This document shows positions 11,116 through 49,005 of a stretch of DNA of 64,000 nt, piece after piece. The DNA is taken from positions 25,304 through 89,303 of the forward strand of contig CAZSLS010000002.1 of assembly GCA_964607575.1 (NCBI GenBank), read 5' to 3'. Within the stretch, counting starts at the first letter, position 1. Every line of letters begins with the position of its first letter. Position numbers and translations under genes: made by a program. The notes under the pieces are model-generated. The model saw nothing but the letters and a program-made list of their open reading frames with translations, ran no database searches and was not told the origin of the DNA. This DNA comes from an uncultured Planctomycetaceae bacterium. Lineage in GTDB: Bacteria; Planctomycetota; Phycisphaerae; SM23-33.

Positions 11116-11316
11116 CTCGTGTCTCCAGGACCGATGAGGGCATCTGCGGGAGGTAATTTCCAGTTCAAGAATACCAACAACCGCACCGCTAAAACAAGCA
11201 CCGAAACGCGCCGCCGGCCGGTCCGTTGGCGGTTGCGTGCGGATGGAGGGTGTGGTACTTTGCCCGTCGAGGCGCGGCGTGTGAGGCGCCACCGCCACTG
11301 CTATCGGAGAATTGCG

Positions 11317-30612: not shown

Positions 30613-30742
30613 GGGCCTGCCGAGCCCTCCCGAAACGCCGAGTAAGCCCCCCCGACTGCGGGGGGGCTTCTTGGGTTTTCTGCACCGATTGAACCGGCTT
30701 GATGTTCCATAAGAATCCGCATTGACCGAAAGAAGAAGGCAG

Positions 30743-33700: not shown

Positions 33701-34795
33701 GCGGCGATACGCTCACTCGGTTATCTGCAGGACCGCCAGGCGATACCCGACCTCGTGGCGATCATGAATGCTAATCTGAATAAGCGCGGAAAGGGCGGTT
33801 GGAATGAAGGGGGTTTCAACCAGAAGCCGACGTATCTGTGCGCTACGGCCGCCGAGGCACTCGGCAGGATCGGCGGAGCCGAAGTGGAAAAAGCGATTCT
33901 GGCGGCGCTGGCGAAACTGGGCAATTTCGAGTTGCAGGTAATGCGCACCGGCGAGCACGGATGGTTGAGAAGCGCCCAGGCCTCGCCGGGCTACTTCCGG
34001 ATGCTCGAGGCGCTGGAACGCATGGGAAGCAAAGCCGGCGGCGAATTGGCCGGGCCGATCGTGATCTCGATTCCGGTGGACAAGGACCGCGGACTGCTGT
34101 ACGAACTGGACAGTTATGAAAAGCTGGTCGGGCGGACGGTCAAACGCATCGGGCAGATGGACAACGTTGTTGAAGCGTGTTTCGCGGTACTGGACAAGAC
34201 GTCGAAAGCGGCGGTCGACCCCAAGTTGAAGGCCGCGGTATCAAAAGCCCCGCACAACGAGCGCCATATCAGGAGGCTTTCGGCCCAGTCGCGGGCGGCG
34301 CAGGTTATGTCGGTTGTGTGCATGGACCTGAAGTACGCCGACAGGATCAGAAAAGTGCTGAAGACCTACCGGGCCGACAAACCGTCGGAAACCCGCGCAT
34401 GGACTTGCTTCATGCTGACGCGAACCCTCGGGCGGATCGGCGATACCGGATCGATCGACCTGTTCGTAGAGATGCTGACAAAGGATCCTACGGAAACCGC
34501 GCTGGGCCTGAACCCGCCGCCAACCCACATTATCTACAAGGCCTGGCGACCATTCTATCGCCCCGCCGCCGCATGGTCTCTCGGACGGCTCAAAGCCAAG
34601 AAGGCTACCGGCGCTTTGCTCAAGGCGGTGCAGGAATTGGAAAATGCGTCGAGCACGCGCCAGGAATCCGCGATAGCACTCGGGATGATCGCCGACAAGA
34701 CCACCCTGGCCGAACTGAAGAAGATCGCCGAAGAATACCCCGAACTCATGACCAGACGATCGCTCCTGGAGGCAATCGCGAAGATGTCGAAGTAG
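30743..34795 (+). CDS. Secreted paralogue: N-terminal jelly-roll-like domain, PD40-type propeller, one CxxCH motif, then HEAT/armadillo repeats
   Basis: The start is set at MKNSSKFVIIAV…, with GAAGGCAG upstream. CVGCHAPVD is present. HEAT-like repeats run …SIPILVKALGDKSPEMRCAAALSL…AIKPLMISLKDTNPTVARAAACAL… onward. It shares the …LYGVKGK…DLTKK…ELEYSINGK… mini-domain with 27760..30612. Confidence 0.6.
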   Translation: MKNSSKFVIIAVTLLMLLAAGTVSAAAKPPTFSGANWIWHKGVGQAAGTWYFQKGMAFPAGQKPKKAHVLITCDNLWTLHVNGKQVGRNDSTADSWQRPQSLDVAKHLVIEKNAIAIAGTNTAPGPSGLLVKLVVEFEDVKKTFELVSDKTWISSSKPTTGWKDNGFTAGPDWTPVTVVGAYGSAPWGKLDGSARRPRGARKPAPLPAVLADKEELKKPIYKDGVVFVGSAVGLNVNRQPIYHQNIRGTRAYFEMDPMTPAALGRQLWSLIPLGPDGKKTLLCDAGQGTVGSPSVSFDGKTVYFTKVKPGEAFFHIYKIDMTAKGDAAPGGEKSVVQLTDGPFHDYDPMELPDGRIAFSSTRIGSREEYHGKYASSLWTYDPKSKKIRPLTYHIVADREPRVTSDGQLAFIRSDNFLERAKVEAHLHQTRMDGTAGQVIIGPGRKGVRLDRDVAAEPAMNWLRRYGIGSPAPMPDGRVAAINQRGLVTSATATGLDVGGGFLPFDLSPLPDSRLLCTARAKNQIIVFDPKDKSQKGVFSMNGIHSVVHLGARKKPSVMPSMVDPAIERSISKTGFLYCQNVLNTQHTSADTKRIKAIRVYEGRPFTIEPTKAIYVHIGTVGIELGTVPLASDGSFYIEVPADRPLALQAIDGEGRAVINELSWIYTRPGEQRACVGCHAPVDAAPSMTPAKAMRSRPLKLTGQGAPHRFRANNGANGGIVNLQLDKFREVVGINLNTVPNDASLSTIRRLGILRNRSSIPILVKALGDKSPEMRCAAALSLSACGNRDAIKPLMISLKDTNPTVARAAACALEHLTGNPAGGTDFYAIEKALIGKISPENQLTGTAAPVKKRAPKIIIKSALYGVKGKPSRQVDLTKKISKRVAAGKFTFSASHKFAGKDPAPGINKTTELEYSINGKLKKASLREGAEFDLVLGNIAGPGSVSSKSGQEIHMAIEALGHVGGNAGKKAIRDWLASNPKGELRMLMAAIRSLGYLQDRQAIPDLVAIMNANLNKRGKGGWNEGGFNQKPTYLCATAAEALGRIGGAEVEKAILAALAKLGNFELQVMRTGEHGWLRSAQASPGYFRMLEALERMGSKAGGELAGPIVISIPVDKDRGLLYELDSYEKLVGRTVKRIGQMDNVVEACFAVLDKTSKAAVDPKLKAAVSKAPHNERHIRRLSAQSRAAQVMSVVCMDLKYADRIRKVLKTYRADKPSETRAWTCFMLTRTLGRIGDTGSIDLFVEMLTKDPTETALGLNPPPTHIIYKAWRPFYRPAAAWSLGRLKAKKATGALLKAVQELENASSTRQESAIALGMIADKTTLAELKKIAEEYPELMTRRSLLEAIAKMSK

Positions 34796-36276: not shown

Positions 36277-37680
36277 TCATTTCCTCTTGACGTCATAACA
36301 ATACAGTTTGTTGAAGTGACGCAGATATAGTTTACCGCCGGCGACGACGGGGTGGGCCCAACTGGTGCCCATGGTGCGTTTGTATTCTTTAGTCCATCCG
36401 GATTTATCGGCAAAACCTTCGGCGAAGAAACGCCCTTTGATCTTGAAGCCCTTGGGGGTGCATTCGCACAGGAGCGTTTCGCCGGCTTCTTCGGCGAAGA
36501 CATAGAACATACCGTCTGCCCAGCAGACCGAACCCTTCGGAATATTCTCGACGTCTTCGTCCAGGTCGTTGGAGTCCCACATGGTCTTGCCCGTTTTGAA
36601 ATCGATACAGGCGAAACCTCTCTTGTTGTTACCGTATAGATAACCCTTGTGCAGGATCATACCGCCGTGATGACAGTCGGCGTCTTTGGTCTCCCATGCC
36701 TTCTTTGCGAAGACCTTTTGACCTTTGGCCTTCATTTTCAGGCAGATCCCGCCCTTACCGTATCCGCATGCCCAGAAGACGTGCCCATCGGAGTAGATCG
36801 GTGTATTGCAGTTGGCCATGTTGCCTTTGGCGAATTCATATTTCCAGAGTCCCTTGCCTGTTTCAGCGTGAACGCCCATGAGTCCCTCGCGGCTGCCGTT
36901 GACGAGCATGGGAACGCCGTCGACATCGCCAAGAATGGTCGAACCGTATTGGCTTTGCCCGTTCGGAGGCGATTTCCACAGCGTCTTGCCCGTCATCTTG
37001 TCTAATGCGACCATAAAGGTCTTCTCGCCGCCGGTGCAGTAGATGGCTTTGTCTTTATAGATCAGGACCGATTCGGCGTAGCCCCAACCGTGTCCGACAA
37101 CACCGCTGTCGAATTCTTTTTCCTGAACCTTGCGCGTCCAGATGCGCTGGAAGGTATCCTTCTTCAGGCACATGATTTCGCCCAGACCGGTGGTGACGTA
37201 CAGGCGATCTTTCTCGATAGTGATGCTGGCGCGCGTGCCCTTGTAGGAGAGGTTTTCGTGGCGGCCGTCGGGATGGATCTTTTCGTAATACGCATTGGCG
37301 ACGTCTTTCGATTGCTTCACTTTGCCCGTGGCGTAGTCGATAGTGGTGACGTAAAAGCCCTGGCCCTTGATCTGCCAAATGTGCTTCGGAGGCGTTTTGT
37401 ATTCGATCTTCTCGTCCGCGTGCGGTTTGCGACCGGTGATGTAGGCCAACCCGCCATCAAGCGTGACGCTCGAGTAGCCATTGCCGATACCTTTGACTTC
37501 CCACAGTTTTTTCGGACCGCCTTTGGGCCAGCTCTTGAGCAGACCGGTATCGGTCGATTTGCTATCGCGGTTCGGACCGCGCCATTGTTTCCAATCGCCC
37601 TCGGCGCCCGGAGACCTGCCGGCGATCAGAACAGCAAACACAACAACCGCCAACGGCGACAACAGACGTACTGACTTCAT
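36277..37680 (-). CDS. Secreted PQQ-like (BamB-like) beta-propeller repeat protein
   Basis: Signal MKSVRLLSPLAVVVFAVLIAG is present. …WKQWRGPNRDS… is the typical opening. Repeated …TGK.LWK… and …TGKTMWDS… blades follow. The start is set at ATG 37680 with GAGGTG 9 nt upstream. Confidence 0.7.
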   Translation of the reverse strand: MKSVRLLSPLAVVVFAVLIAGRSPGAEGDWKQWRGPNRDSKSTDTGLLKSWPKGGPKKLWEVKGIGNGYSSVTLDGGLAYITGRKPHADEKIEYKTPPKHIWQIKGQGFYVTTIDYATGKVKQSKDVANAYYEKIHPDGRHENLSYKGTRASITIEKDRLYVTTGLGEIMCLKKDTFQRIWTRKVQEKEFDSGVVGHGWGYAESVLIYKDKAIYCTGGEKTFMVALDKMTGKTLWKSPPNGQSQYGSTILGDVDGVPMLVNGSREGLMGVHAETGKGLWKYEFAKGNMANCNTPIYSDGHVFWACGYGKGGICLKMKAKGQKVFAKKAWETKDADCHHGGMILHKGYLYGNNKRGFACIDFKTGKTMWDSNDLDEDVENIPKGSVCWADGMFYVFAEEAGETLLCECTPKGFKIKGRFFAEGFADKSGWTKEYKRTMGTSWAHPVVAGGKLYLRHFNKLYCYDVKRK

Positions 37681-37893
37681 AACATACACCTCGTAATAAT
37701 AATACTAGCACAAAACGGACACCTTAATCCACCAAACGCACGGGGCGGTCGGCTCGGTCCCTACCTTAGGGATTCAGTTCGTCGGTACAATGCTTAATTA
37801 TTGGATTGCGGCTACACTGTACGTGATGCTAAGCTGTCTTCATGCTGAGAATAGCGAGAAAGGAGACTCCGGATCAACGGACTTGAACGATAT

Positions 37894-38874
37894 TTGGGTG
37901 TACTGGGCGGTGAGGCGGTGGACTTCCTGCCGCGCACGCCGATACTCATGCAGTTTGCGGCTGAGTATATCGGCTCGAACTACGCGCAGTTCGCCTCGGA
38001 CTTCCGCGTCCTGGTCCGGGCCAACGAGCAGTGCGCCGTCGATTTCGGTATCGACCAGCTCAGCACCATCTCCGATCCGTATCGAGAGACGCAGGGGTTC
38101 GGCTCGGAAATAACCTACCGCACCGACGCAACCCCGCTCAGCACGCACCCGCTGGCTGAGACCAAGGACCTATCGACTCTGGCCCGCCCTGATCCGCTGG
38201 TTTCCGAGCGAATGAAAGACCGTGTCGATGCGGTCGCGGCGTACAAGGAGCAGTTCGGCGGTCGTTACTCGATTCTCGGCTGGGTCGAGGGACCTGCCGC
38301 CGAAGCTGCCGACCTGCGCGACGTGGCGGCGTTCATGATCGACACCGTCACCGACGAACCGTTCGCTTGCGATCTGATGGACCTCTGCCTGGAAAACGCC
38401 ATCGAATTCGCCGAAGCGCAAATCCGCACCGGGGCCGACACCATCGGCGTCGGCGATGCGGTGGCGTCCCTGGTCTCGCCGCAGACATACGAATCGCTGA
38501 TCCTGCCCAGAGAAAAACGCCTCGTCGACGCCATCCAAGCCGCCGGAGCGTACGTAAAACTGCACATCTGCGGAAATATCACGCACTTGCTGGACGGTAT
38601 CGCGGAGCTGGGGGTGGACATTCTGGACATCGACCACATGGTCGATATTTCGACGGTGCGCCGGAAGGTCGGACCGGGAGTGGTGATCGGGGGTAATATA
38701 GACCCCGCCGAAGGCGTCTACCGCGGAACATCTGAATCGATCAGGGAAATAACCATGCACGCGTATCAACAGGCGGGCAATCCATTTATGGTTAATGCCG
38801 GCTGCGAAATCCCTTCGGGGACTCCGCCGGAGAATCTCAAGGCGCTGTGCGAACCGATCGAGCAGCTCTCTTAG
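37894..38874 (+). CDS. Uroporphyrinogen-decarboxylase (URO-D) family protein (MtaA/CmuA-like methyltransferase type); start codon uncertain
   Basis: …LGGEAVDFLPRTPILMQFAAEYIGSNY… matches the URO-D-family N-terminal 'GE.vDR.PvW.MRQAGRY' region and the fold continues to the end. An in-frame TAG at 37852 leaves only TTG (37894) or non-canonical codons as starts. Confidence 0.6.
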   Translation: MGVLGGEAVDFLPRTPILMQFAAEYIGSNYAQFASDFRVLVRANEQCAVDFGIDQLSTISDPYRETQGFGSEITYRTDATPLSTHPLAETKDLSTLARPDPLVSERMKDRVDAVAAYKEQFGGRYSILGWVEGPAAEAADLRDVAAFMIDTVTDEPFACDLMDLCLENAIEFAEAQIRTGADTIGVGDAVASLVSPQTYESLILPREKRLVDAIQAAGAYVKLHICGNITHLLDGIAELGVDILDIDHMVDISTVRRKVGPGVVIGGNIDPAEGVYRGTSESIREITMHAYQQAGNPFMVNAGCEIPSGTPPENLKALCEPIEQLS

Positions 38875-39082
38875 TCCAAACTGACCACCCGTTCGGTATT
38901 TATGTTCGACTTATAATCAACTTAGAGCAATTCATGGTCGATACTTACCTTTAGATTCATCGCTTGCCAGGCCCGGAGCGATCGGCAGCGGCGCAAGAAA
39001 ACTCTTGCTTCGGGCATCAGACCGCCGGATACTCACTGGAGTACTCAGCGCGGGAAGGACCAACCGTAACCGGAAGCTCAAC

Positions 39083-40027
39083 ATGACCAGAAAACTAGTA
39101 ATATTCATAGTGTTATTGTCCGCCGCCTTGCTCGGAAGGGCTGCGGACGTACCGAAAAAACAAGTATCCCAATTCAAATCCATCGCAAGAGCCAGCGAGG
39201 ACATTACCGTATCCTCCACCATGCCGGTTCGGGTCTCGAAAGTCTTTGTCAAAGATGGAGACACCGTAAAGCCCGGACAAACACTGGTGCAACTCGACGA
39301 CAAGGCCGAACGCGTTCAGATGGAACAACTGAAAGCACAGGCCGAAGACGAAACGCACCTGGAGGCCGCGGAAGCACAACTCGCCCAGAAGAAAGTCGAT
39401 TACAAACGAATCCAAAATGCCCGGGCCAAGAACGCCGCAACCGCACTGGAACTGGAGCACGCGCGCCTGGAGGTCACGATCTCAGATCTGTCCCTGACGC
39501 TGGCGCGGTTCGAACACACCCAGGACAAACGGAAGTACCTGCAGGCCGAGGCCCAGGTCGATCGATTGAGACTGCGCGTACCTACTTCCGAAAACGATTT
39601 GCCCGGGGACACGTTCAAGGTCTTCAAAGTCTTCGTTTCTCGCGGCGAGTCCGTCGATCGCCTGAAGGAAGTTATCCGGGTCATCAAGATCGATCCGCTC
39701 TGGATCGACGTCCCGGTCCCCGAAGAGATCGTCGGTGCACTGAAACTCAAGGTCGCCCAGAAAGCACGCGTGATCTTCCTCAAGACCAAGACCCTCCCGA
39801 CCGAGGGCAAGATCATCTACATTGCGGATGAGATCGATGCGGCCAGCGGAAAGCAAACGATACGTGTTGAGGTCCCAAATCCCAGCGGAATACCCGCCGG
39901 TAAGAAAGTATTCGTAGAATTTTTACCAAAGGCCCGGTCGACAACCAGACCTGCCGACAAGAAGCAGGCCGCCAATCCCACGGCAGACCGGACAGAAATA
40001 TCGATTAACAGGAAAGGAACGAGTTGA
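39083..40027 (+). CDS. HlyD-family periplasmic adaptor (membrane fusion protein), signal-anchored
   Basis: MTRKLVIFIVLLSAALLGRA is a signal. …VKPGQTLVQLDD… is a biotin-lipoyl hairpin, followed by a long coiled coil (…QMEQLKAQAEDETHLEAAEAQLAQKKVDYKR…) and a beta-barrel-type C-terminus. Confidence 0.75.
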   Translation: MTRKLVIFIVLLSAALLGRAADVPKKQVSQFKSIARASEDITVSSTMPVRVSKVFVKDGDTVKPGQTLVQLDDKAERVQMEQLKAQAEDETHLEAAEAQLAQKKVDYKRIQNARAKNAATALELEHARLEVTISDLSLTLARFEHTQDKRKYLQAEAQVDRLRLRVPTSENDLPGDTFKVFKVFVSRGESVDRLKEVIRVIKIDPLWIDVPVPEEIVGALKLKVAQKARVIFLKTKTLPTEGKIIYIADEIDAASGKQTIRVEVPNPSGIPAGKKVFVEFLPKARSTTRPADKKQAANPTADRTEISINRKGTS

Positions 40028-40398
40028 TGGCCAAAGACACCCCCGAACCGGCACAAGACGCCCCACAGGCGGCGCCTGAAGCAGCACCCGAAGGTCAGGA
40101 ACAGCAGACGATCCGAGTTCGCATGGACCAGCGGGATGTAAAAACCAGCTACGCAAACGCGTTCAACACGCACGGGCTTATCAACGAGGTCATCCTTGAC
40201 TTCGGACTGAACACGCCCGTTCCACCCCAACCCGATCAACCGCCGGAAATCATGCTGCAGATCACCGACCGGATCATCCTGAACTACTACTCCGCCAAAC
40301 GCCTCGCCCTTACGCTCGGGCAGTTGGTCAGGCGACATGAAGAACGATTCGGAGAACTGGAACTGGATGACAGCAAGCGGGTCAAGAGCGACCAGTAG
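40027..40398 (+). CDS. DUF3467-like small protein
   Basis: This is a 123-aa protein. …YANAFNTHGLINEVILDFGLN… matches the DUF3467 core motif. It has a Pro/Ala-rich acidic N-terminus. Its start overlaps the upstream stop (TGATG). Confidence 0.55.
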   Translation: MAKDTPEPAQDAPQAAPEAAPEGQEQQTIRVRMDQRDVKTSYANAFNTHGLINEVILDFGLNTPVPPQPDQPPEIMLQITDRIILNYYSAKRLALTLGQLVRRHEERFGELELDDSKRVKSDQ

Positions 40399-40424
40399 CC
40401 TTCCGAACCGGAGACTCATCCCTG

Positions 40425-42452
40425 ATGCCCCCAGACAACGTGGAAAGCTCCAGACCGCAGCCACAGCCGCATGACGGTCAACTGCCTACATTGGCTGAAC
40501 TCTTCGAACAGCTAAGCCGCTATGACGGCCCGGTGGAGGGTTTTCTTGCGCACCTCGTGCAAACCCAATGCCAGGCCGCCGACGCCAGGGGCGGTGCGAT
40601 ACTGCGAATCTCCCCGGACGGGCGCCCACAGGTTCTGGCGGTATACCCCCCCGCCGAGCCGGGATCAACGCCTCCGGTCTGGTTGGCGCGCGCCGCTGAG
40701 ATCGCGCCGCAGGTAGCGGCGGGAGGCGCCACCGATGTCAGGGCGCTGCACGATCCCGACGATCTCTACGGCCAGCCCGCGCGGAGCCACCTGGCGCTGG
40801 TGCCTTTGACCGGCGGGCAGGGAGCCAGGGGATTGGCTGCGTACGTACTCGAAAAAGGCGACGATGAAGCCGTTTTCGCCGCACGAATCGAACGCCTCGA
40901 GCTTACCATCGTCCTGATGGGGCTCCACGAAATGCGCCTCTCGCTGCAAAGACGAAATAACGATCTTGCGAGGCTCAGGGTCTCCATGGACACCCTGGCA
41001 GCAACTAACGAACACGAGAAGTTCACCGCCTCGGTCATGTCGCTCTGCAACGAAATGGCGTCAACCTGGAAGTGCGAGAGAGTCAGCCTCGGAGTACTGA
41101 AGGGGCGATACGTTCAGGTCAGCGCCGTCAGCGGTACCGAAAAAATCAACCGCAAGATGAAACTGGTCCAGGACATCGAAGCGACTATGGAAGAGGCGCT
41201 GGACCAGGATATCGAAGTGATCCTGCCCGCATCTCCAGAGGCGACCTATGTCAGCCGCGGCGCATCGGAACTCTCCCGCAGGCACGGGCCCTCGGCAATC
41301 GTCTCGCTACCGCTCAGGCGAGAGGGCAAGGGCGTCGGTGTAGTCACGCTGGAGAAGTCCGCCGACAATCCGTTTACCGCCGAACAGATCGAAGCTCTGC
41401 GATTGACCTGCGAACTGGCCACCCCCAGGATTATGGACCTGTTCAAGACCGACCGCTGGTTCGGGGCTAAGGCCGCCCGGACCGTGCGCGGCGGACTGGG
41501 CGTAGTTGTTGGCGCCAAACACACGTGGCTGAAGATGATCGCCATACTCGTATCCGCTTTCCTGGTATTTGCGATCCTGTTCAAGGGAGACTACACCGCC
41601 GGCGGTAGCATGACCCTCCAGGTGAGAACCCAGCACGTTATTCCCGCACCGTTCGAAGGGGTCCTCAAGAGTGTACACGTGGAAGTCAACGAGAGGATCG
41701 TCGGCGAAGGGGCGCCAGGCGTGACGATCCTGGCGGAAATGGACACCGCCGAACTGCGGGAGCGCCTCGCTGCAGCGCAAGCCGAACGCAGCCGGGCGAG
41801 AAATCAGGCGGAGCAGGCCAGGAATGAAGGCAAACAGGTTCAGGTCCAGATTGCAGAGAATGACGTCCAGAAAGCCGACGCCAATATCCGCCTCCTCCAG
41901 CAGCGTATTGCCCTGGCTTCGATCAAGTCGCCCATATCCGGTACGGTCATCAGCGGAGACCTCAAGAGGCATCTTGGGCGGCGCTACGAACTGGGTAAGG
42001 AGCTTTTCCAGATCGCCAAGATCGAGAACATGCGCGCCGAAGTGCTCGTGGGCGAAGACCAGATCGCCGAAGTAATAGAGAAATATGGTCCCAGTTGCAG
42101 GAAACGCAACAAAATCCAACAGGAACTCGACAATCTTGGCAACGAAAATCCCGACAGACGCCGGAAACTCGAAAACCAGATCGCCGAACTCGACAAGGAC
42201 GTAGGAGGCCGCCTAGCCGCGCTGGGGCACGCGGGGAGGCATTTTGATTTTGTAGTCGAACGAATCACACCGGTCGCCAGACCCTCGGAAGGGAAAAACG
42301 TCTTTCCGATTCGCGTCAAACTGCTCCAGACCTCCCAGTGGATGCGACCGGGCATGACCGGCGTGGCGGAGGTAGATATCGATCGCCGCCCGTACGCCTA
42401 CATCTGGACGCGCCGGTTGGTTAACTGGATCCGGATGAAGTTGTGGTTGTAG
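40425..42452 (+). CDS. GAF-GAF-TM-HlyD fusion: cytoplasmic tandem GAF-like sensor domains joined by one TM helix to a periplasmic membrane-fusion (HlyD-family) domain
   Basis: The first ~350 aa carry two GAF-like units (…GGAILRISPDGRPQVLAVYP…LALVPL…GLAAYVLEKG… and …CERVSLGVLKGRYVQVSAVSG…AIVSLPLRREGKGVGVVTLEK…). The TM is HTWLKMIAILVSAFLVFAILF. Then comes …VLKSVHVEVNERIVGEG…, a coiled coil (…ELRERLAAAQAERSRARNQAEQARNEGKQ…) and …IKSPISGTVISGDLK…. Confidence 0.65.
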   Translation: MPPDNVESSRPQPQPHDGQLPTLAELFEQLSRYDGPVEGFLAHLVQTQCQAADARGGAILRISPDGRPQVLAVYPPAEPGSTPPVWLARAAEIAPQVAAGGATDVRALHDPDDLYGQPARSHLALVPLTGGQGARGLAAYVLEKGDDEAVFAARIERLELTIVLMGLHEMRLSLQRRNNDLARLRVSMDTLAATNEHEKFTASVMSLCNEMASTWKCERVSLGVLKGRYVQVSAVSGTEKINRKMKLVQDIEATMEEALDQDIEVILPASPEATYVSRGASELSRRHGPSAIVSLPLRREGKGVGVVTLEKSADNPFTAEQIEALRLTCELATPRIMDLFKTDRWFGAKAARTVRGGLGVVVGAKHTWLKMIAILVSAFLVFAILFKGDYTAGGSMTLQVRTQHVIPAPFEGVLKSVHVEVNERIVGEGAPGVTILAEMDTAELRERLAAAQAERSRARNQAEQARNEGKQVQVQIAENDVQKADANIRLLQQRIALASIKSPISGTVISGDLKRHLGRRYELGKELFQIAKIENMRAEVLVGEDQIAEVIEKYGPSCRKRNKIQQELDNLGNENPDRRRKLENQIAELDKDVGGRLAALGHAGRHFDFVVERITPVARPSEGKNVFPIRVKLLQTSQWMRPGMTGVAEVDIDRRPYAYIWTRRLVNWIRMKLWL

Positions 42453-42464
42453 GAGACGCATATC

Positions 42465-44729
42465 ATGCCAATCGACCGCCCCACATTCAGTGAATCGTGG
42501 TATCGCGTCGCTTCGTTGCGACCGCGCCTGCGGTCGTCGGTCCAGGTATTCCGCCAGCACTTCCGCGGGCAGATGTGGCATGTCCTGCAGGACCCGGGAT
42601 CCAACCAGTTCTTCCGACTGAACGACACGGGCTATCATTTTGTCGGTCTGCTCGACGGGCGGCGAACGGTTGCGGAAGTCTGGAACGTGTGCAACGAACA
42701 ACTCGGCGACGCGGCGCCGACCCAGGGCGAAGCGATCGCACTGCTGGGGCAGTTGTACACCTCCAACCTGCTCCAGGCGGATGTACCACCGGATGCCCAG
42801 GGCCTGTTTCGGCGTTACCGACAGCGAGTGGGACGGGAAGTAAGGGGATACCTCACGAACCTCCTGTTCATCCGGATACCCCTGATCGACCCCGACAGAT
42901 TCCTCGAACGATGGGTTGGTGTATTCGGCGCGATATTCAGCATAGTCGGCTTGATATGCTGGTTGATCCTGATGTCGGTAGGCGCCTACTTCCTGCTCGG
43001 GCGGACCAGCGAACTGGGCAACCAGGCCATGGGCGTCCTGATGACCGCAAACCTGCCCCTGCTGGCGATAAGTTTCTGGATTGTCAAGATCATCCACGAA
43101 TTCGGGCATGGTTTTGCGTGCAAGAAGTTCGGGCTACAGGCCGGCGGAGGTGAGGTCCATACGATGGGCATCATGTTCCTGATCTTCATGCCCCTGCCCT
43201 ACGTCGACGCGTCAAGCGCCTGGGCGTTTCGGAGCAAGTGGCATCGCGTGGCGGTCGGAGGCGCCGGGATGTTCTGCGAACTGGCGATCGCGGCGGTTGC
43301 GGCGATTGTGTGGGCAAGTGTCGGTGAGGGCATGGTCCAGGCGCTGGCGTATAACTGCATGTTCATCGCCTCGGTGACAACGCTTCTGTTCAACGCCAAT
43401 CCGCTGCTGAGGTATGACGGGTACTACATCCTCTCGGATCTGCTGGAGATACCCAACTTCGCCCAGCGGTCCAAAAGCTACCTGTACTACCTGGTCAAGC
43501 GATACATATGGGCCGTACGCAATCCCAGGAACCCCGCAAACACTTCCGGCGAAAAAGCATGGTTCGTATTCTACGGGATCGCCTCGACTATCTACCGCCT
43601 GTTCATCCTGGTCGTGATCCTGATGTTCCTGTCCGACCGCCTTCCGGAGGAACTCAAGTTCATAGCCACCATCGCCGCGGCGGTATCCGGAGCCGTCTGG
43701 TTGTGTACTCCGATATTCAAGTTCCTCAAGTACCTGGCGACCAGCGGCGAACTTTCCCGCGTTCGAGGCCGCGCGGTAACCTCAACGCTGCTGACGGTGA
43801 CAAGCATCATCCTGCTCGTTGGCGTCATACCCTGGCCCGACCGCGTACGCGCCGAAGGTGTTGTCGAACCGCTCGGACTGGTAGTCGTGTACACTCGAAC
43901 CGACGGATACGTTGCAAACTTCCTCCCCTCGGGAACGCCGGTGGGCGCCCGGGACGTGCTCATAAACGCCGTACCGCCTACCGACGACCCGCGGCAGCGA
44001 AACCGGTTCTTCGATAGTCTGAACACTGAACTGACCGCCACACAGCAGATCCTGGAAGCCGAATACGCCAAGATAAAATGGCAGGAAGATTGGGCTCTCG
44101 CCGAAAACGAACACGCAATCGTAGCCTCGAGAATCGAAGAGGCAAAAGCCAAAGCAGAGCAGATCCATCGGGTCAGGAACGATATCAGAAACCTGACGAT
44201 CCGATCGCCGATAAAGGGTGTGTGGATATCCCCCGACGTTGACCGCCTCAAGGGCAATTTCGTGCAAAAGGGTCAGCAAATCGGACTGGTCGCCAACCGG
44301 GAACCCGAAAACCTGGTTGTCCGGGCGGTAGCATCGCAGGAGATCGGGGCGCTTCTTTACGAACTTCACAACAGGAAAAACCACACGATCCCCGTCGAAA
44401 TCCGCATACAAGGACGTCCCGCCCCGGCATTCACGGGCAAGATAATCAAGATCCTCGACTCCGCACAGGACGTCCTGCCCTCCCCGGCGCTGGGATACGC
44501 CGTAGGCGGACCGATTGTCACTCGCTCCGACGACCGCCAGGGCCTGATGGCCGCCGAGGGCTTCTTCGAAATACACGTTACCCCACAGACCGATGATTCC
44601 GGCGACCCGGACGGAGGGGTCCTGCTGCTCCCGGGACAGCGAGTGGTGGTGCGTTTCGACATGCCGTCAAAACCGCTCGTCGCCCAGTGGTGGCGGTCAC
44701 TACTGCAACTGCTTCAGAGAAAACAATAA
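42465..44729 (+). CDS. RRE/PqqD-like N-domain + M50-type (site-2-protease-like) intramembrane zinc metalloprotease + C-terminal HlyD-like domain
   Basis: GGAG sits 10 nt upstream. The N-terminus …VQVFRQHFRGQMWHVLQDPGSNQFFRLNDTGYHFVGLLDGRRTVAEVW… is PqqD/RRE-like. HEFGH lies in a TM helix (…FWIVKIIHEFGHGFACKKFG…). At least five more helices follow. The C-terminus …IRSPIKGVWISPD…KGQQIGLV… is a membrane-fusion beta-barrel/lipoyl region. Confidence 0.7.
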   Translation: MPIDRPTFSESWYRVASLRPRLRSSVQVFRQHFRGQMWHVLQDPGSNQFFRLNDTGYHFVGLLDGRRTVAEVWNVCNEQLGDAAPTQGEAIALLGQLYTSNLLQADVPPDAQGLFRRYRQRVGREVRGYLTNLLFIRIPLIDPDRFLERWVGVFGAIFSIVGLICWLILMSVGAYFLLGRTSELGNQAMGVLMTANLPLLAISFWIVKIIHEFGHGFACKKFGLQAGGGEVHTMGIMFLIFMPLPYVDASSAWAFRSKWHRVAVGGAGMFCELAIAAVAAIVWASVGEGMVQALAYNCMFIASVTTLLFNANPLLRYDGYYILSDLLEIPNFAQRSKSYLYYLVKRYIWAVRNPRNPANTSGEKAWFVFYGIASTIYRLFILVVILMFLSDRLPEELKFIATIAAAVSGAVWLCTPIFKFLKYLATSGELSRVRGRAVTSTLLTVTSIILLVGVIPWPDRVRAEGVVEPLGLVVVYTRTDGYVANFLPSGTPVGARDVLINAVPPTDDPRQRNRFFDSLNTELTATQQILEAEYAKIKWQEDWALAENEHAIVASRIEEAKAKAEQIHRVRNDIRNLTIRSPIKGVWISPDVDRLKGNFVQKGQQIGLVANREPENLVVRAVASQEIGALLYELHNRKNHTIPVEIRIQGRPAPAFTGKIIKILDSAQDVLPSPALGYAVGGPIVTRSDDRQGLMAAEGFFEIHVTPQTDDSGDPDGGVLLLPGQRVVVRFDMPSKPLVAQWWRSLLQLLQRKQ

Positions 44730-44772
44730 CCGGAGTCCGCAATTGAACGAGGTCGCCAGCACAACCTGGCGG

Positions 44773-46743
44773 ATGTTGGCGCAGCGAACGGGCGGTCGAG
44801 AACTGCCTCGCGGACTCGATGCGGCATGGGACGCCGCGGCGGGTATGGCCCAGAAACTCCTTCCGCGAACCGCAAGATTCCTCCGCCAGGCCGACGTGGT
44901 ATTGGGCTACGAGAAGCATTTCGCAATGATGACCGCGGCGAAACTCCGCACCCATGCCGCGGAGTTCCGCGACCTCTTCCGACTGGGACGCAATACATCT
45001 GACGATCTCCTGAAGGCCTTCGCACTCGTCCGCGAGGTCGCCGCCAGGCAGATCGGCCTGAAAGCTTACAGGGTACAGGTCGCCGGGGCACTTGCCCTGT
45101 ACGCAGGATGCATTGTCGAAATGGCCACCGGCGAGGGAAAGACACTCGCCGCAACCATGCCCGCAACCGTTGCCGGATGGTGTGGAAAAGGATGCCACGT
45201 CATCACCGTAAACGACTATCTCGCCAAACGAGACGCCGAGGAAATGGGCCCGATCTACCGCTTCTGCGGACTGAAGGTCAACCATATCGATCAGGAAACA
45301 CCGCCCCCGCAGCGCCGCGAAGCATACCACGCCGACATCACATACTGCACCAACAAGGAAGTCACCGCCGATTACCTGCGAGATCGCCTGGCCATGGGAC
45401 GCTTGAGGGGGCTTTCGTCGGCGTTGCTGGCACGCATCGCCGAGGGCACCCAGAGCGGGACCGATCGAGTAGTACAACGCGGTCTGAACTACGCGATCAT
45501 CGATGAAGCCGACTCGGTGCTGATAGACGAAGGCGTCACGCCGCTGATCATCTCGGGAGAGGCGCCCAATACCGAGCAGGTACAAGCATTTCAGCAGGCG
45601 GCGGGCATCGCCGGGCAAATGCAGGATGGCGTCCACTACCGGGTTAACTTCAAGTATCGCGAGGTCAACCTCACCAAGGACGGAAAAGCCTTCGCAGCCG
45701 AACTGACCGCCGAACTGGGAGGCATATGGGCCGGACAGCGGAGAAGCGAGGAATTGATCGTCCAGGCACTGACGGCACGGGAAATGTTCCTGATCGACAA
45801 GCAGTACGTTATCCAGGAAGACAAGGTCGTGATCGTCGACGACTTCACCGGGCGGCTCATGCCCGACCGCGAATGGCGAGACGGGCTGCACCAGGCGGTA
45901 TCCGCCAAAGAAAACGTCGAAGTACAACCGCCAAAAGACACCTACGCGCGGATGAGTTTCCAGAGATTCTTCAGGATGTATCGACGCCTGTCAGGCATGA
46001 CCGGAACCGCGGTCGAAGCCACTGGAGAATTCTGGCAGTTCTACCACACGCCGGTGGTGGTCGTTCCGACCAACGAACCCTGCATACGCAAGCAACTGCC
46101 CTCCCGCGTCTACGCCTCCCAAACCGCCAAGTGGCACGCCGTCATCGATGAAATCACGCGCGTCCACGAGAAAGGCCAGCCCATTCTCGTCGGCACGCGC
46201 AGCGTCCGCGACAGCGAAAAAATCTCCGCACTGCTCACGGAACTCGAACTGGAACATGAAGTACTCAACGCCGTCAGGCACGCTGAAGAAGCCCAAATCG
46301 TAGCCCAGGCCGGGCAAGGCGGACGAATTACCGTGGCGACCAACATGGCCGGACGCGGTACCGACATCAAACTCGGTCGCGGTGTGGCCGATCTCGGCGG
46401 CTTGTACGTCCTGGCCACCGACCGCCAGGAGTCCGGGCGGATCGACAGACAACTCGCCGGACGGTCCGGACGGATGGGCGACCCGGGCCTGGCGCGCAGA
46501 TTCGTGAGCCTCGAAGACGATCTGCCCAAGCGCTACGCGTTGAAGATGGCGAAATTCCTGCGCAAACGCCACCGCGATGGCGATGAGAGAATCGCCCGAG
46601 ACATCGCCGGACCGCTAACCAGACGCCTCTTCAACCGCGCGCAGCGACGAGCCGAACATACCGCTTTCAAGCAGCGGCGCGCCGTCCTGCGCACCGACCA
46701 CTGGCTCGACGAGTACCTGGGCTTCGCCGGAATCGAGCGATAA
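44773..46743 (+). CDS. SecA-like motor ATPase lacking the C-terminal third (NBD1-PPXD-NBD2 retained; most of HSD and all of HWD/CTL absent)
   Basis: …MATGEGKTLAATMPA… is Walker A. …HVITVNDYLAKRDAEEMGPIYRFCGLKV… is the SecA signature. …ITYCTNKEVTADYLRD… and …AIIDEADSVLIDE… (DEAD) are present. …MTGTAVEATGEFWQFYH…VVVPTNEPCIRKQLPSRVY…GQPILVGTRSV…TVATNMAGRGTDIKLG…LATDRQESGRIDRQLAGRSGRMGDPG… follows. The protein ends about 60 aa after motif VI. An alternative in-frame TTG start lies at 44743. Confidence 0.75.
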   Translation: MLAQRTGGRELPRGLDAAWDAAAGMAQKLLPRTARFLRQADVVLGYEKHFAMMTAAKLRTHAAEFRDLFRLGRNTSDDLLKAFALVREVAARQIGLKAYRVQVAGALALYAGCIVEMATGEGKTLAATMPATVAGWCGKGCHVITVNDYLAKRDAEEMGPIYRFCGLKVNHIDQETPPPQRREAYHADITYCTNKEVTADYLRDRLAMGRLRGLSSALLARIAEGTQSGTDRVVQRGLNYAIIDEADSVLIDEGVTPLIISGEAPNTEQVQAFQQAAGIAGQMQDGVHYRVNFKYREVNLTKDGKAFAAELTAELGGIWAGQRRSEELIVQALTAREMFLIDKQYVIQEDKVVIVDDFTGRLMPDREWRDGLHQAVSAKENVEVQPPKDTYARMSFQRFFRMYRRLSGMTGTAVEATGEFWQFYHTPVVVVPTNEPCIRKQLPSRVYASQTAKWHAVIDEITRVHEKGQPILVGTRSVRDSEKISALLTELELEHEVLNAVRHAEEAQIVAQAGQGGRITVATNMAGRGTDIKLGRGVADLGGLYVLATDRQESGRIDRQLAGRSGRMGDPGLARRFVSLEDDLPKRYALKMAKFLRKRHRDGDERIARDIAGPLTRRLFNRAQRRAEHTAFKQRRAVLRTDHWLDEYLGFAGIER

Positions 46744-47330
46744 TGGCCCCGGCACGCCCATTTGAGCTGGTCATCTTCGACATGGATGGAACGCTGATCG
46801 AGCAGATGCTCGACTTTGAGGGTATACGTAAGCACCTTGGGATCCGCCCGAACGAGGGCATACTCGAAGGAATCGCAAACATGCCGCCCGATCGGCGGAC
46901 CCAGGCCGAACACTGGCTCGTGCGAACCGAACACCTGATCGCCCAAAACGCTCGTCTCATGCCCGGAGCCATTGAAACTCTGGCGGCGATCCGCAACGCG
47001 AATATCCAAACCGCCCTGTTGACCAGAAACACGCGAGCATCGATGCAAACGGTCCTAGAGAAGTTCGACCTCCGGTTCGACCTGGCCTGGTCGCGAGAAG
47101 ACGGACCGATCAAGCCCGAGCCCGACAGCGTCCTGAAGGCGTGCGAGACGCTCGGCGTCGCCCCGGGACAAACCGCGTGCATAGGCGATTTTGAATACGA
47201 TATCGTCGCCGCCAACGCCGCCGGCGCCGTTAGCATCCTCCTGGTCCCGGACTCCAGACCCCCATTCGCCGATACCGCCGATCGCGTCATAATCAAACTG
47301 TCTGAACTACCCGCCCTGCTGGGAATCTGA
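46743..47330 (+). CDS. HAD-superfamily hydrolase (phosphatase-like, subfamily IA type)
   Basis: Motif I is VIFDMDGTLIE. …LLTRNT… and …CIGDFEYDIVAANAAGA… are motifs II-IV. The start overlaps the SecA-like stop (TAATG). Confidence 0.7.
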   Translation: MAPARPFELVIFDMDGTLIEQMLDFEGIRKHLGIRPNEGILEGIANMPPDRRTQAEHWLVRTEHLIAQNARLMPGAIETLAAIRNANIQTALLTRNTRASMQTVLEKFDLRFDLAWSREDGPIKPEPDSVLKACETLGVAPGQTACIGDFEYDIVAANAAGAVSILLVPDSRPPFADTADRVIIKLSELPALLGI

Positions 47331-47430
47331 GCAAACCAAAGGCGAACGCGGGGCGATGCCCCGCCGCTATTCAGGGTGATAGGTGAGAGTCGGTGTTGTG
47401 TAATCTGGCGGATCGGGTATTCTATGGGGT

Positions 47431-49005
47431 ATGAAATCCGCTTTCATATTTGCTGCCCTTGTCGCACTGCTTTCGTCGGCCCGCGCCGGGGAAAACGACT
47501 GGCCTCAATGGGGGCGAACCGACGACCGCAATATGGTCTCAGACCAGAAGAACCTCCCCGATCTCGGTAAGGGGAAAATCGCTTTCAAGAACGCTAAATG
47601 GGACATTCGCTGGACCGTCAAGCTCGGATCGCTGTGCTACGGGAACCCGACCGTCTCAGGCGGAAAAGTTTTCATCGGCACAAACGATCGGTTCTGGTCC
47701 GATCCTCGCGCCAAGCGAAACCGAGGCGGGCTGCTGCTGTGCATTGACGACGTCACGGGCAAAGTGCTGTGGCGCCTGCTCGTACCGCGATACAAGAAGA
47801 AGGTCTACGGCAGCGGATTCGACGACCTGAATGTCGGGGTCTGCTCGGCGGTAACCGTCGAGGGCGACAAGGCGTACGTTGTAAGCAACCGCGCCGAAGT
47901 ACTCTGCCTCGATGTCAACGGGCAGGCCAACGGTAATGACGGGCCGTATCGCGGCGAAGGTAAGTATATCGCCGGGCCCGCCAAGCCGCCGGTAAAACTC
48001 TACCGCGGCGACGGCGATATCATCTGGCGATTCGACATGATCGGCGGCCTGGAAAACGCACCGCACGATGCGACGAACTGCAACATCCTGATCCACGGAG
48101 ACCTGCTGTACGTCAACACGGGCAACGGCGTCCATCGCATGCCCGACGAGCCCATGCCCAAACCCGATGCGCCAACTCTGATCGTGCTGAACAAGAAGAC
48201 CGGCAAGCTGGTGGCCCAGGACGGATGCAGAATCGGTCACCGAACGTTCCACGGTAACTGGTCGTCGCCGTCGCTGGGCAAGGTCGGAGGCAAGGAGCAG
48301 ATCTTCTTCGGCGGCGGAGACGGCGTCCTCTACGCATTTGCGCCCCCGAAGGTGAATCCCAAAGCCGACAAGCCGGTGGTCTTTAAATCCGTCTGGAAGT
48401 ACGACTGCAATCCCAAGGGCTACAAAGTCGACGCCGACGGTGAGGAACTCGACTATTGGGACGGTGACGCATCCCGCGCCGAGGTGACCAAGAGCTACAA
48501 GGGGCAGAGCGAAATAATCGCCACGCCCGTCTTCTACAAGAACCGCGTTTACGTGGCCATCGGACGTGATCCCGAACACGGAATCGCACGGGGAATGCTC
48601 CACTGCATCGACGCGACGAAAACCGGCGACGTAACCAAGGCCGCTCGCATCTGGTCGTACGACAAGATAGCACGCACAATGTCGACGGTCGCCATCGCCG
48701 ACGGGCTGCTCTACATCTCCGACTACGCGGGGTTAGTCCACTGTCTCGACGCCGAAACGGGCAAGGTCTGCTGGGTCCACAACACCGGCGAGCGGATATG
48801 GAGTTCGACCCTGGTCGCCGACGGGAAGGTGTACGTAGGCACGGAGAAGAAGCACCTCTTCATATTCAAGGCCGGCCGCAAAAAGCAGCTCGTCGCGACG
48901 ATCAGGATGCCATACAAAATCTCGACCACGCCGATAGTGGCCAATGGATGTATCTACGTTCCCACCGCCCGGTGCCTCTACGCGGTCGGCAAGCTGAAGA
49001 AGTAA
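47431..49005 (+). CDS. Secreted PQQ-like (BamB-like) beta-propeller repeat protein
   Basis: Signal MKSAFIFAALVALLSSARAG is present. …DWPQWGRTDDRNM…, …TGKVLWRL…, …TGKLVAQD… and …TGKVCWVH… blades follow. Confidence 0.7.
   Translation: MKSAFIFAALVALLSSARAGENDWPQWGRTDDRNMVSDQKNLPDLGKGKIAFKNAKWDIRWTVKLGSLCYGNPTVSGGKVFIGTNDRFWSDPRAKRNRGGLLLCIDDVTGKVLWRLLVPRYKKKVYGSGFDDLNVGVCSAVTVEGDKAYVVSNRAEVLCLDVNGQANGNDGPYRGEGKYIAGPAKPPVKLYRGDGDIIWRFDMIGGLENAPHDATNCNILIHGDLLYVNTGNGVHRMPDEPMPKPDAPTLIVLNKKTGKLVAQDGCRIGHRTFHGNWSSPSLGKVGGKEQIFFGGGDGVLYAFAPPKVNPKADKPVVFKSVWKYDCNPKGYKVDADGEELDYWDGDASRAEVTKSYKGQSEIIATPVFYKNRVYVAIGRDPEHGIARGMLHCIDATKTGDVTKAARIWSYDKIARTMSTVAIADGLLYISDYAGLVHCLDAETGKVCWVHNTGERIWSSTLVADGKVYVGTEKKHLFIFKAGRKKQLVATIRMPYKISTTPIVANGCIYVPTARCLYAVGKLKK

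Follow-up and report, generated by a model that had tools for sequence, protein, structure and literature searches.

A membrane-spanning tandem GAF adaptor and its gene module, a candidate export route for giant LEPR-XLL proteins

The DNA analyzed here (the window) is a stretch of 64,000 nucleotides from an uncultured Planctomycetaceae bacterium (NCBI GenBank assembly GCA_964607575.1, contig CAZSLS010000002.1, positions 25,304 to 89,303 of the forward strand). Coordinates below are window positions unless preceded by a locus number. A gene on the + strand at 40425..42452, with an ATG start, encodes a 675-residue protein (hereafter the GAF-adaptor) in which two GAF folds and a single transmembrane (TM) helix precede an adaptor domain of the membrane fusion protein (MFP) type, predicted to be periplasmic. 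It is the third of five consecutive genes, the others encoding a small MFP, a DUF3467 protein, a fusion of a PqqD-like domain with an M50 membrane protease and an MFP-like domain, and a SecA-like ATPase. Domain searches and structure prediction show that the GAF-adaptor is an adaptor, predicted to be a bitopic inner membrane protein, built from a tandem GAF like that of PDE and CyaB2 proteins, one TM helix and a domain similar to MacA and AcrA. It is the “GAF” subunit of a module first described in 2015 (Kamneva, Poudel & Ward, PLoS One, PMC4452313). Domain anatomy and gene neighborhoods suggest that this module is most likely an envelope-spanning machine, similar to type 1 secretion, which exports and processes giant proteins carrying an LEPR-XLL leader.

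Domain Organization and Predicted Fold

The cytoplasmic half of the GAF-adaptor opens with GAF1, a divergent GAF fold predicted to lie in the cytoplasm (residues 23-147; 40491..40865), and continues through a long connecting helix (residues 148-198; 40866..41018) into GAF2 (residues 199-342; 41019..41450), the best-conserved part of the protein. A juxtamembrane helix (residues 343-366) and the TM helix (residues 367-386) follow at 41451..41582. The remaining sequence (41583..42449) comprises the MFP domain (residues 387-656), predicted to be periplasmic, with lipoyl, α-hairpin (442-496) and β-barrel parts and an extra coiled coil (544-590), and a Trp-rich amphipathic helix at the C-terminus (residues 657-675).

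GAF2 is recognized directly by Pfam, residues 206-332 matching GAF_2 at 33 bits (cutoff 28.6) and GAF at 26 bits (cutoff 22.4). No Pfam family matches residues 1-200 of the window protein; the GAF1 region matches GAF_2 or GAF_3 at ~3e-5 in three of 16 homologues. Nor does a profile comparison of GAF1 with GAF2 indicate an internal duplication (hhalign probability 1.6%, not significant). With this comparison insignificant and Pfam matches sparse in GAF1, the claim of a tandem GAF rests on fold and not on sequence.

A full-length AlphaFold2 (AF2) model built from an alignment of 40 homologues has a pLDDT of 82, and residues 1-366 modeled alone reach a pLDDT of 85.5 with a pTM of 0.66. Both models contain two α/β GAF folds at residues 23-147 and 199-342 separated by a helix of ~48 residues (148-195), and two more helices after GAF2 (346-362 and 367-385) reach and form the TM segment. 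The elements of GAF1 are arranged in the order H-H-E-E-H-E-E-E at a pLDDT of 82-94. When the cytoplasmic half was compared with the PDB by Foldseek, the matches were the GAF-A/B domains of PDE6C, PDE2A and PDE5A, the adenylate cyclase CyaB2 and phytochrome GAF-PHY structures, at E 2e-11 to 1e-9. The alignments span 350-450 columns (350-430 for the entries 9cxi, 6x88, 1mc0, 3lfv, 3ibj and 1ykd) and cover GAF1 and GAF2 together. A helix between the domains is also present in the tandem GAF modules of PDE2/5/6 and CyaB2.

The adaptor half is likewise supported by both sequence and structure. Pfam HlyD_D23 and HlyD_3 match residues 392-551 above their gathering scores (31.4 bits against a cutoff of 30, and 32.7 against 22.2, respectively), PDB profiles match MacA and EmrA (MacA at E 1.9e-12), and Foldseek retrieves MacA, AcrA, MexA and EmrA at E ~1e-12 to 1e-9. 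The α-hairpin consists of AF2 helices 442-468 and 471-496. The NCBIfam adaptor models all score far under their cutoffs (RND_mfp 33.3 against 94.9; DevB 28.2 against 129; EmrA 27.4 against 390.8), and type_I_hlyD gives no match.

A first-pass annotation of this DNA had described ~350 residues of cytoplasmic tandem GAF, two units ahead of a single TM helix and an HlyD/MFP domain. Pfam, AF2 and Foldseek agree on that order; 366 residues precede the TM helix and the GAF folds occupy residues 23-342. By Pfam the GAF assignment holds for GAF2, which scores above cutoff, and fails for GAF1 of the window protein, while structure prediction recovers both domains.

Two insertions occur in the periplasmic part of some family members. 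The coiled coil at residues 544-590 (~42054-42194) is an extra insertion of ~40 residues in the window clade, predicted with high confidence and lacking in most homologues. A subfamily of 760-810 residues (P0041, P0044, P0047, P0076, P0086 and P0110) carries an insertion of 120-150 residues at residue ~430, within the lipoyl/hairpin region, with conserved motifs such as PSWLL and ELNRSLL. The C-terminal amphipathic helix (42393-42449) has conserved W661, W668, R670 and W674, and the C-terminus of the M50 fusion (44667-44726; ...AQWWRSLLQLLQRKQ) resembles it. These helices may be shared elements for binding the membrane interface or a partner.

Membrane Topology

The GAF-adaptor has one strongly hydrophobic segment, WLKMIAILVSAFLVFAILF (residues 368-386), which matches the TM helix given in the first-pass annotation and has a Kyte-Doolittle peak of 2.48, and its hydropathy profile reveals no hydrophobic signal peptide at the N-terminus. 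In the 30 residues on each side of the TM helix of the window protein, lysine and arginine number six on the N-terminal side and three on the C-terminal side; among 108 family members the N-terminal side is the richer in 69, the two are equal in 25 and the C-terminal side is the richer in 14. Characterized GAF domains lie in the cytoplasm, and characterized MFP domains in the periplasm. The charge bias, the absence of a signal peptide and the usual compartments of the two domain types together give good support to an N-in/C-out topology, with the GAF domains predicted to be cytoplasmic and the adaptor domain periplasmic, which is the orientation that the first-pass annotation had proposed.

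The adaptors of textbooks have just a short tail in the cytoplasm and act as passive bridges. Around 350 folded signaling residues on the inner side of the membrane suggest that the state of the cytoplasm is passed on to the periplasmic tunnel.

Conservation and Distribution

Homologues of the GAF-adaptor number at least 480, with E-values down to 0; the closest are from metagenome-assembled genomes of Phycisphaerae at 88% identity, and one JGI protein is 100% identical. Residues 1-366 alone retrieve 233 clusters (at 50% identity) at E<=1e-30. Nearly all the complete matches from this search are 600-750 residues in length with the matched region at the N-terminus, which makes GAF-GAF-TM-MFP the standard architecture. 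A pattern scan with one genome per species places relatives in 385 species genomes. Alphaproteobacterial homologues, 23-28% identical, match Pfam GAF at residues ~190-330 and HlyD after residue ~390. The gene therefore has a real, uninterrupted architecture, familiar in public databases under names such as “GAF domain-containing protein” and “HlyD family efflux transporter periplasmic adaptor subunit.”

Conservation computed over the 108 family sequences averages 0.575 in GAF2, 0.454 in the MFP domain and 0.35 in GAF1. In GAF2, 17 positions are at least 90% conserved, as are W668, R670 and W674 at the C-terminus. G223, S236, M255, E257, P296 and E310 are invariant out to the Alphaproteobacteria, and the set S236, M255, E257, P296 and E310 maps to β2, α3, β4 and β5 of GAF2.

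In Terrarubrum flagellatum (L088:13411-15365) the GAF-MFP gene is annotated as two overlapping open reading frames (ORFs), and the list shows neither an M50 nor a SecA-like gene downstream of it. The module copy there may be decaying, or the plasmid gene table, which is incomplete, may have a gap at this point.

The Five-Gene Module

All five genes are on the same strand, with neighbors 12-43 nt apart or overlapping. A scan of 37700-47600 found no terminator-like site on the + strand, and the promoter and terminator counts there are not above those of shuffled sequence; the absence of such sites within the module is compatible with a single operon.

The first gene (39005..40027, +) is a 340-residue ORF for a small MFP (Pfam HlyD_D23 2.5e-13, HlyD_3 4e-10) which reaches 83.5 bits with NCBIfam RND_mfp, under the cutoff of 94.9. 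Its true start is likely M27, at 39083, next to a segment resembling a signal peptide or anchor (MTRKLVIFIVLLSAALLG; hydrophobic at residues 25-43). The second (40024..40398, +) encodes a small soluble DUF3467 protein of 124 residues (Pfam 2.1e-13; 50.5 bits, cutoff 25), which is also encoded in the alphaproteobacterial clusters. A profile search found no relative of it in the PDB. A relation to the chaperone SecB was considered for this protein and not supported: hhalign against E. coli SecB returned a probability of 0.1%, and the PDB profiles were likewise negative.

Directly downstream of the GAF-adaptor lies the M50 fusion (42465..44729, +; 754 residues), which joins a PqqD-like domain (residues 39-103; Pfam PqqD 31.5 bits, cutoff 23.4) to an M50/S2P-type HExxH membrane metalloprotease with at least six TM segments and to a C-terminal MFP-like domain. 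Together with the small MFP and the GAF-adaptor this brings the MFP-type domains of the module to three. The protease motifs HEFGH (residue 211) and NANPLLRYDG (residue 310) are present, and H211, E212, H215, N310, N312, P313 and D318 are invariant in 16 homologues, among which PqqD is recognized in 13, M50 in 12 and HlyD_D23 in eight. The nearest curated relatives are leader proteases of RiPPs (peptides made by the ribosome and modified after translation), namely daptide_HExxH and YydH/LiaK; the match to NCBIfam daptide_HExxH has an E-value of 6e-47 at 160.6 bits, under the cutoff of 300. Since its catalytic motifs are invariant and the PqqD-like domain is found in 13 of the 16 homologues, the fusion is probably an active, peptide-directed protease.

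The last gene (44593..46743, +) encodes a SecA-like ATPase with a DEAD motor and a preprotein cross-linking domain (Pfam SecA_DEAD 2.9e-100, SecA_PP_bind 1e-25, P-loop_SecA 1e-56). From reading the sequence, the Walker A (MATGEGKT) and IIDEAD motifs are intact. SecA_SW scores only 14.8 bits, over profile positions 2-36 of 200; the protein stops a short way into the scaffold helix and thus lacks the wing and most of the scaffold. On the window protein, every NCBIfam SecA model stays under its cutoff. Counted from its first ATG, the ORF shares 137 nt with the M50 gene, which makes 44773 (M61) or 44845 the probable real start. A HAD-hydrolase gene (46743-47330) has a start that overlaps the stop of the SecA-like gene, and is linked to the module only in the four closest relatives.

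The arrangement is strongly maintained. In the best 80 loci among relatives from the 385-genome scan, 77 have the M50 fusion directly after the GAF-MFP gene and the remaining three stop at a contig edge. The SecA-like gene is present in 67, nearly all of the others running out at a contig edge; the DUF3467 gene precedes GAF-MFP in 59, and the small MFP gene adjoins in 55, sometimes downstream on the other strand. The order is kept at the locus of a homologue with 32% identity, and the same neighbors accompany GAF-adaptors at 23-28% identity in alphaproteobacterial replicons. Other HlyD proteins with N-terminal GAF domains, which the first-pass annotation had suggested looking for along with their neighbors, exist in number, and those at the 80 loci sit in the same module.

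None of the five module proteins of the window matches an ABC transporter and no such family recurs in the flanks of the 80 loci; an RND, ABC or MFS pump gene is found neither in the cluster of the window nor at these loci.

Some database names for module genes (“prepilin peptidase,” “DEAD/DEAH box helicase” and “efflux RND adaptor” in RefSeq) are misleading. The first two are applied to the SecA-like ATPase at L084:15596-17512, L087:18443-20467 and L089:17572-19533. Those of L084 and L087 score as SecA (TIGR00963 594 bits, Pfam SecA_DEAD 8.5e-99), and that of L089 is assigned by its position in the cluster. The Pseudosulfitobacter cluster also contains a SapC-family gene (L087:17629-18450; Pfam SapC 1e-72).

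Giant LEPR-XLL Proteins and TolC-Like Genes Beside the Module

Giant ORFs, of up to >3,100 residues before the end of the examined flank cuts them off, lie directly upstream or downstream of the module in 10 Planctomycetota loci. An N-terminal LE.R.LL motif marks ten flank ORFs, every one of which is the gene immediately beside the module, at a distance of 240-920 nt. Sequence lying that close makes up 20% of the flanks, giving P ~1e-7 under uniform placement, a value uncorrected for relatedness (three of the loci are close relatives). Five of these ten N-termini pass NCBIfam NF012209 (LEPR-XLL). Examples of LEPR-XLL-type ORFs are L010:14951-20569, L056:16299-21896 and L043:8963-10183, together with those starting at 6510 in L030, 16677 in L050, 6607 in L026, 10778 in L059 and 13405 in L071. 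No Pfam domain was found in the Planctomycetota giant proteins at E<=0.001.

The same association recurs in Alphaproteobacteria. In all five replicons with visible upstream annotation, an LEPR-XLL giant gene lies directly upstream of the module (Thalassospira, 12.1 kb; Terrarubrum, 16.4 kb; Methylosinus, 26.5 kb; Mesorhizobium, 31.5 kb; Pseudosulfitobacter, 38.7 kb), and the encoded proteins are of 4,000-12,900 residues. The ORFs are at L084:1-11001, L087:1-13471, L089:1-12120, L090:952-13053 and L088:1-10386. Four of the five pass NF012209 at 26.7-34 bits (cutoff 17) and the fifth is named LEPR-XLL in RefSeq. Where the N-terminus of a giant protein is complete it consists of a basic stretch followed by F/L-E-x-L-E-x-R-x-L-L, without a hydrophobic signal peptide.

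A potential outer membrane component is found in part of the family. A gene of the OEP/TolC family, encoding a lipoprotein-like protein of ~600 residues (Pfam OEP 5e-23), adjoins the module in 15 of the 80 loci (L075:9309-11342 on the - strand and 14 further loci), and TolC is annotated within the Methylosinus and Thalassospira clusters.

Giant ORFs in L005, L017, L036 and L074 (ending at 8228, 8457, 9358 and 9232) have a C-terminal stretch of at least ~90 residues in common, with the pattern HELGHxLGLNHQPTD ... GLMAYAP ... LGT..LT..EFP.G.IDT.DLLL.WLA. This could combine a metzincin-like site with a C-terminal sorting or secretion signal.

Relation to Earlier Descriptions

The locus analyzed by Kamneva, Poudel & Ward (2015) contains “secondary SecA_DEAD domain proteins” without wing and scaffold domains, together with GAF proteins bearing HlyD and biotin_lipoyl domains, for which a “regulatory and sensory role” was proposed (PMC4452313). 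The neighbors were an M50-like/HlyD protein, a SecA_DEAD protein, a small HlyD protein and sometimes an OEP, and no ABC transporter partner was present (PMC4452313). The window locus answers to this description in its wing- and scaffold-less SecA_DEAD protein, its GAF-HlyD protein, its M50/HlyD protein and its small HlyD protein. The design is consequently not new, both the GAF+HlyD protein and the sensory interpretation dating from 2015. The first-pass annotation, which had read the GAF domains as ligand- or signal-dependent control of an envelope conduit, repeats that published proposal. It had also called the design unusual, and this stands against textbook adaptors; as a claim of novelty or rarity it does not survive the 2015 paper, the 233 clusters and the 385 genomes.

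A term search of the 2015 paper (PMC4452313) finds no mention of tandem GAF domains, topology, DUF3467, the PqqD domain of the protease or a cargo. A literature search for later work on the 2015 locus, GAF-HlyD proteins, SecA-like/S2P secretion or LEPR-XLL function yielded only two preprints of partial relevance. Giant proteins of Omnitrophota have fused SecA domains without wing and scaffold, for which a role in exporting these proteins was proposed (10.1101/2023.11.21.568195). In a 2026 preprint, sapC and tolC are reported beside the LEPRxLL giant genes of Chl. chlorochromatii, and the export signal and route of two LEPR-XLL giant proteins are called unknown. A term search finds GAF and M50 in neither preprint, and HlyD is also missing from the one on Omnitrophota. 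The literature searched yielded no link between the LEPR-XLL motif and this module. New here are the tandem nature of the GAF domains, the PqqD domain and invariant motifs of the protease, the TolC-like genes flanking 15 of 80 loci and the adjacent LEPR-XLL giants.

Proposed Mechanism and Alternative Explanations

What might such a set of proteins do? The domain anatomy and gene neighborhoods point to a pathway in which the PqqD-like domain would hold the LEPR-XLL leader for removal at the M50 active site. Driving the unfolded chain would fall to the SecA-like motor, in which the preprotein clamp is preserved, and the connection to a TolC-like outer membrane channel to the three periplasmic domains of MFP type. 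The tandem GAF would then serve as a cytoplasmic coupling platform, similar to the short cytoplasmic domain of HlyD but on a larger scale. It could dock a protein partner (the SecA-like motor, DUF3467 or the leader of the cargo) and report occupancy to the periplasmic domain by way of the C-terminal helix of GAF2, the juxtamembrane helix and the TM helix, so that the conduit would be assembled or opened only with cargo engaged. The cytoplasmic domain of HlyD is needed for substrate engagement and TolC recruitment. This analogy, the standing of GAF2 as the most conserved region, the fixed protein partners and the near-continuous helices into the TM segment favor a docking role. It is nevertheless the least certain part of the explanation, and the assignment of the tandem GAF as a coupling subunit facing the cytoplasm is tentative, with a probability slightly below even. 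The wider proposal is more doubtful again: that the five genes would form a distinct secretion pathway for giant proteins, with the tandem GAF adaptor as an inside-out gate for cargo or for a cytoplasmic signal, is possible rather than probable, and the same holds for a cargo of thousands to tens of thousands of residues in which the LEPR-XLL leader would replace a Sec signal.

Several observations weigh against export with a docking tandem GAF. The high conservation of GAF2 would fit a universal small ligand equally well; across phyla, invariance is confined to six residues of GAF2, and GAF1 is not conserved at that distance. Tandem GAFs are dimeric, and the MFPs in PDB entries of the MacAB, EmrAB and AcrAB pumps are hexameric. 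No ABC, RND, MFS or SecY-like gene in the cluster offers a path through the inner membrane. In the window itself, no OEP gene occurs among 10 large ORFs scanned near the module and there is no LE.R.LL-type ORF; no cargo gene adjoins the module here, and any cargo would therefore be encoded elsewhere in the genome. An adjacent LEPR-XLL or giant gene is found in only ~17 of the 80 Planctomycetota loci. Finally, in M. extorquens AM1 the GAF gene is expressed and the rest of the operon barely so, from which the authors infer a separate regulatory role (PMC4452313).

This last point is shared by two other explanations. One or both GAF pockets could be true sensors which bind a cytoplasmic metabolite or second messenger and gate the conduit allosterically, as in the reading of the first-pass annotation and of Kamneva and colleagues. 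GAF is a classical ligand-binding fold, the closest structures are tandem GAFs regulated by cyclic nucleotides and joined by a signaling helix, and the near-continuous helices from GAF2 to the TM segment would suit allosteric gating as they would docking. The residues S236, M255, E257, P296 and E310, which survive to 23-28% identity, could mark the pocket. Against this, the NKFDE motif of PDE-type cyclic nucleotide binding is absent from the GAF-adaptor (regular expression NK.{5,24}F.{3}DE), no ligand can be inferred for the GAF domains, GAF1 is poorly conserved, and the conservation and strict linkage to fixed protein partners fit docking as well. A small-ligand sensor is a strong rival, if on balance unlikely, and the present data do not separate sensing from docking. 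The second explanation is a signaling device with no channel role, in which the GAF-MFP protein regulates the S2P-type protease or relays a signal across the membrane. Regulated intramembrane proteolysis is what S2P/M50 proteases are chiefly known for, and the lack of a recognizable inner membrane transporter in the cluster would be expected of such a device. Three MFP-type domains, a SecA-like motor with a preprotein clamp, TolC-like neighbors and adjacent giants without signal peptides indicate export, however, and the flanks of the 80 loci contain no conserved sigma or anti-sigma gene, which leaves this explanation improbable.

The public names “efflux RND transporter periplasmic adaptor subunit” and “AcrA,” and the best matches of the C-terminal half to MacA, AcrA, MexA and EmrA, would suit a drug or metal efflux adaptor of the ordinary kind that carries an accessory domain at its N-terminus. 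The absence of any RND, ABC or MFS pump gene, the low NCBIfam adaptor scores (RND_mfp included) and the strict linkage to the SecA-like and M50 genes make this very improbable. An artificial fusion, in which an error of assembly or frame would have joined a GAF gene to an adaptor gene, was rejected, its probability being negligible: nothing was found in its favor, hundreds of independent assemblies from different phyla have this architecture without interruption, and the AF2 helices run from GAF2 toward the TM segment.

The LEPR-XLL link in related loci makes the module a concrete candidate for a dedicated secretion route for giant proteins. If that link holds, it would supply a testable answer to how proteins of 4,000 to >30,000 residues without signal peptides are exported, and would assign a function to four unexplained items, namely the secondary SecA, DUF3467, the LEPR-XLL motif and the GAF-adaptor.

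Other Features of the Window

Two further protein types recur in the window. The HZS_alpha domain (“hydrazine synthase alpha middle domain”; Pfam 4e-17 to 4e-21) is found in the large proteins encoded at 19235-22159 (-), 27760-30612 (+) and 30722-34795 (+), two of which also carry PD40 repeats, HEAT repeats or a 3-keto-disaccharide hydrolase domain. β-propeller proteins of the BamB/PQQ_2 type are encoded at 7924-11634 (-), 36277-37689 (-) and 47431-49005 (+); the module lies between two of them, and one of the three has a methyltransferase domain fused to it.

Comparison With Known Systems

The GAF+HlyD/biotin_lipoyl proteins of 2015, for example META1p2402 of M. extorquens AM1, have the same domain combination and the same neighbors as the window locus. 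Among characterized adaptors, those of the HlyD/CvaA type have the bitopic N-in/C-out plan predicted for the GAF-adaptor, with a cytoplasmic N-terminal segment, one TM helix and periplasmic lipoyl, hairpin and barrel domains. The cytoplasmic part of the GAF-adaptor is, however, a folded tandem GAF of 366 residues rather than a segment of ~60, its hairpin is short (~27+26 residues) and it has no ABC transporter partner. MacA of MacAB-TolC and the AcrA, MexA and EmrA adaptors are the best sequence and fold matches of residues 387-656, yet at only 12-15% identity. They have no folded cytoplasmic domain and pair with ABC, RND or MFS pumps, which are absent at the window module.

The cytoplasmic half has its closest counterparts in the tandem GAFs of PDE2A/5A/6 and CyaB2, which likewise consist of two GAF folds and a long helix and connect to their output through a C-terminal helix; identity is 9-15%. 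In those enzymes the output is a catalytic domain, whereas in the GAF-adaptor it is a TM helix and a periplasmic adaptor.

For the module as a whole, a possible functional parallel is offered by the peptidase-containing ABC transporters (PCATs) and related bacteriocin exporters. A review describes these as recognizing an N-terminal leader and removing it with a built-in protease (PMC8277102). The outline proposed for the module is the same, with a leader protease, an MFP and a TolC path, but an M50 metalloprotease carrying a PqqD-type domain takes the place of the C39 cysteine peptidase, the motor would be SecA-like rather than an ABC nucleotide-binding domain, and the presumed cargo is thousands of residues long. 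The M50 proteases of RiPP clusters (daptide HExxH, NF041824; YydH/LiaK; EpeP) resemble the M50 fusion, which has a PqqD-like domain. EpeP is a membrane protease thought to both cleave and export its peptide (PMC10885120). Unlike these proteases, the fusion in the window adds a periplasmic MFP domain and sits with a SecA-like ATPase.

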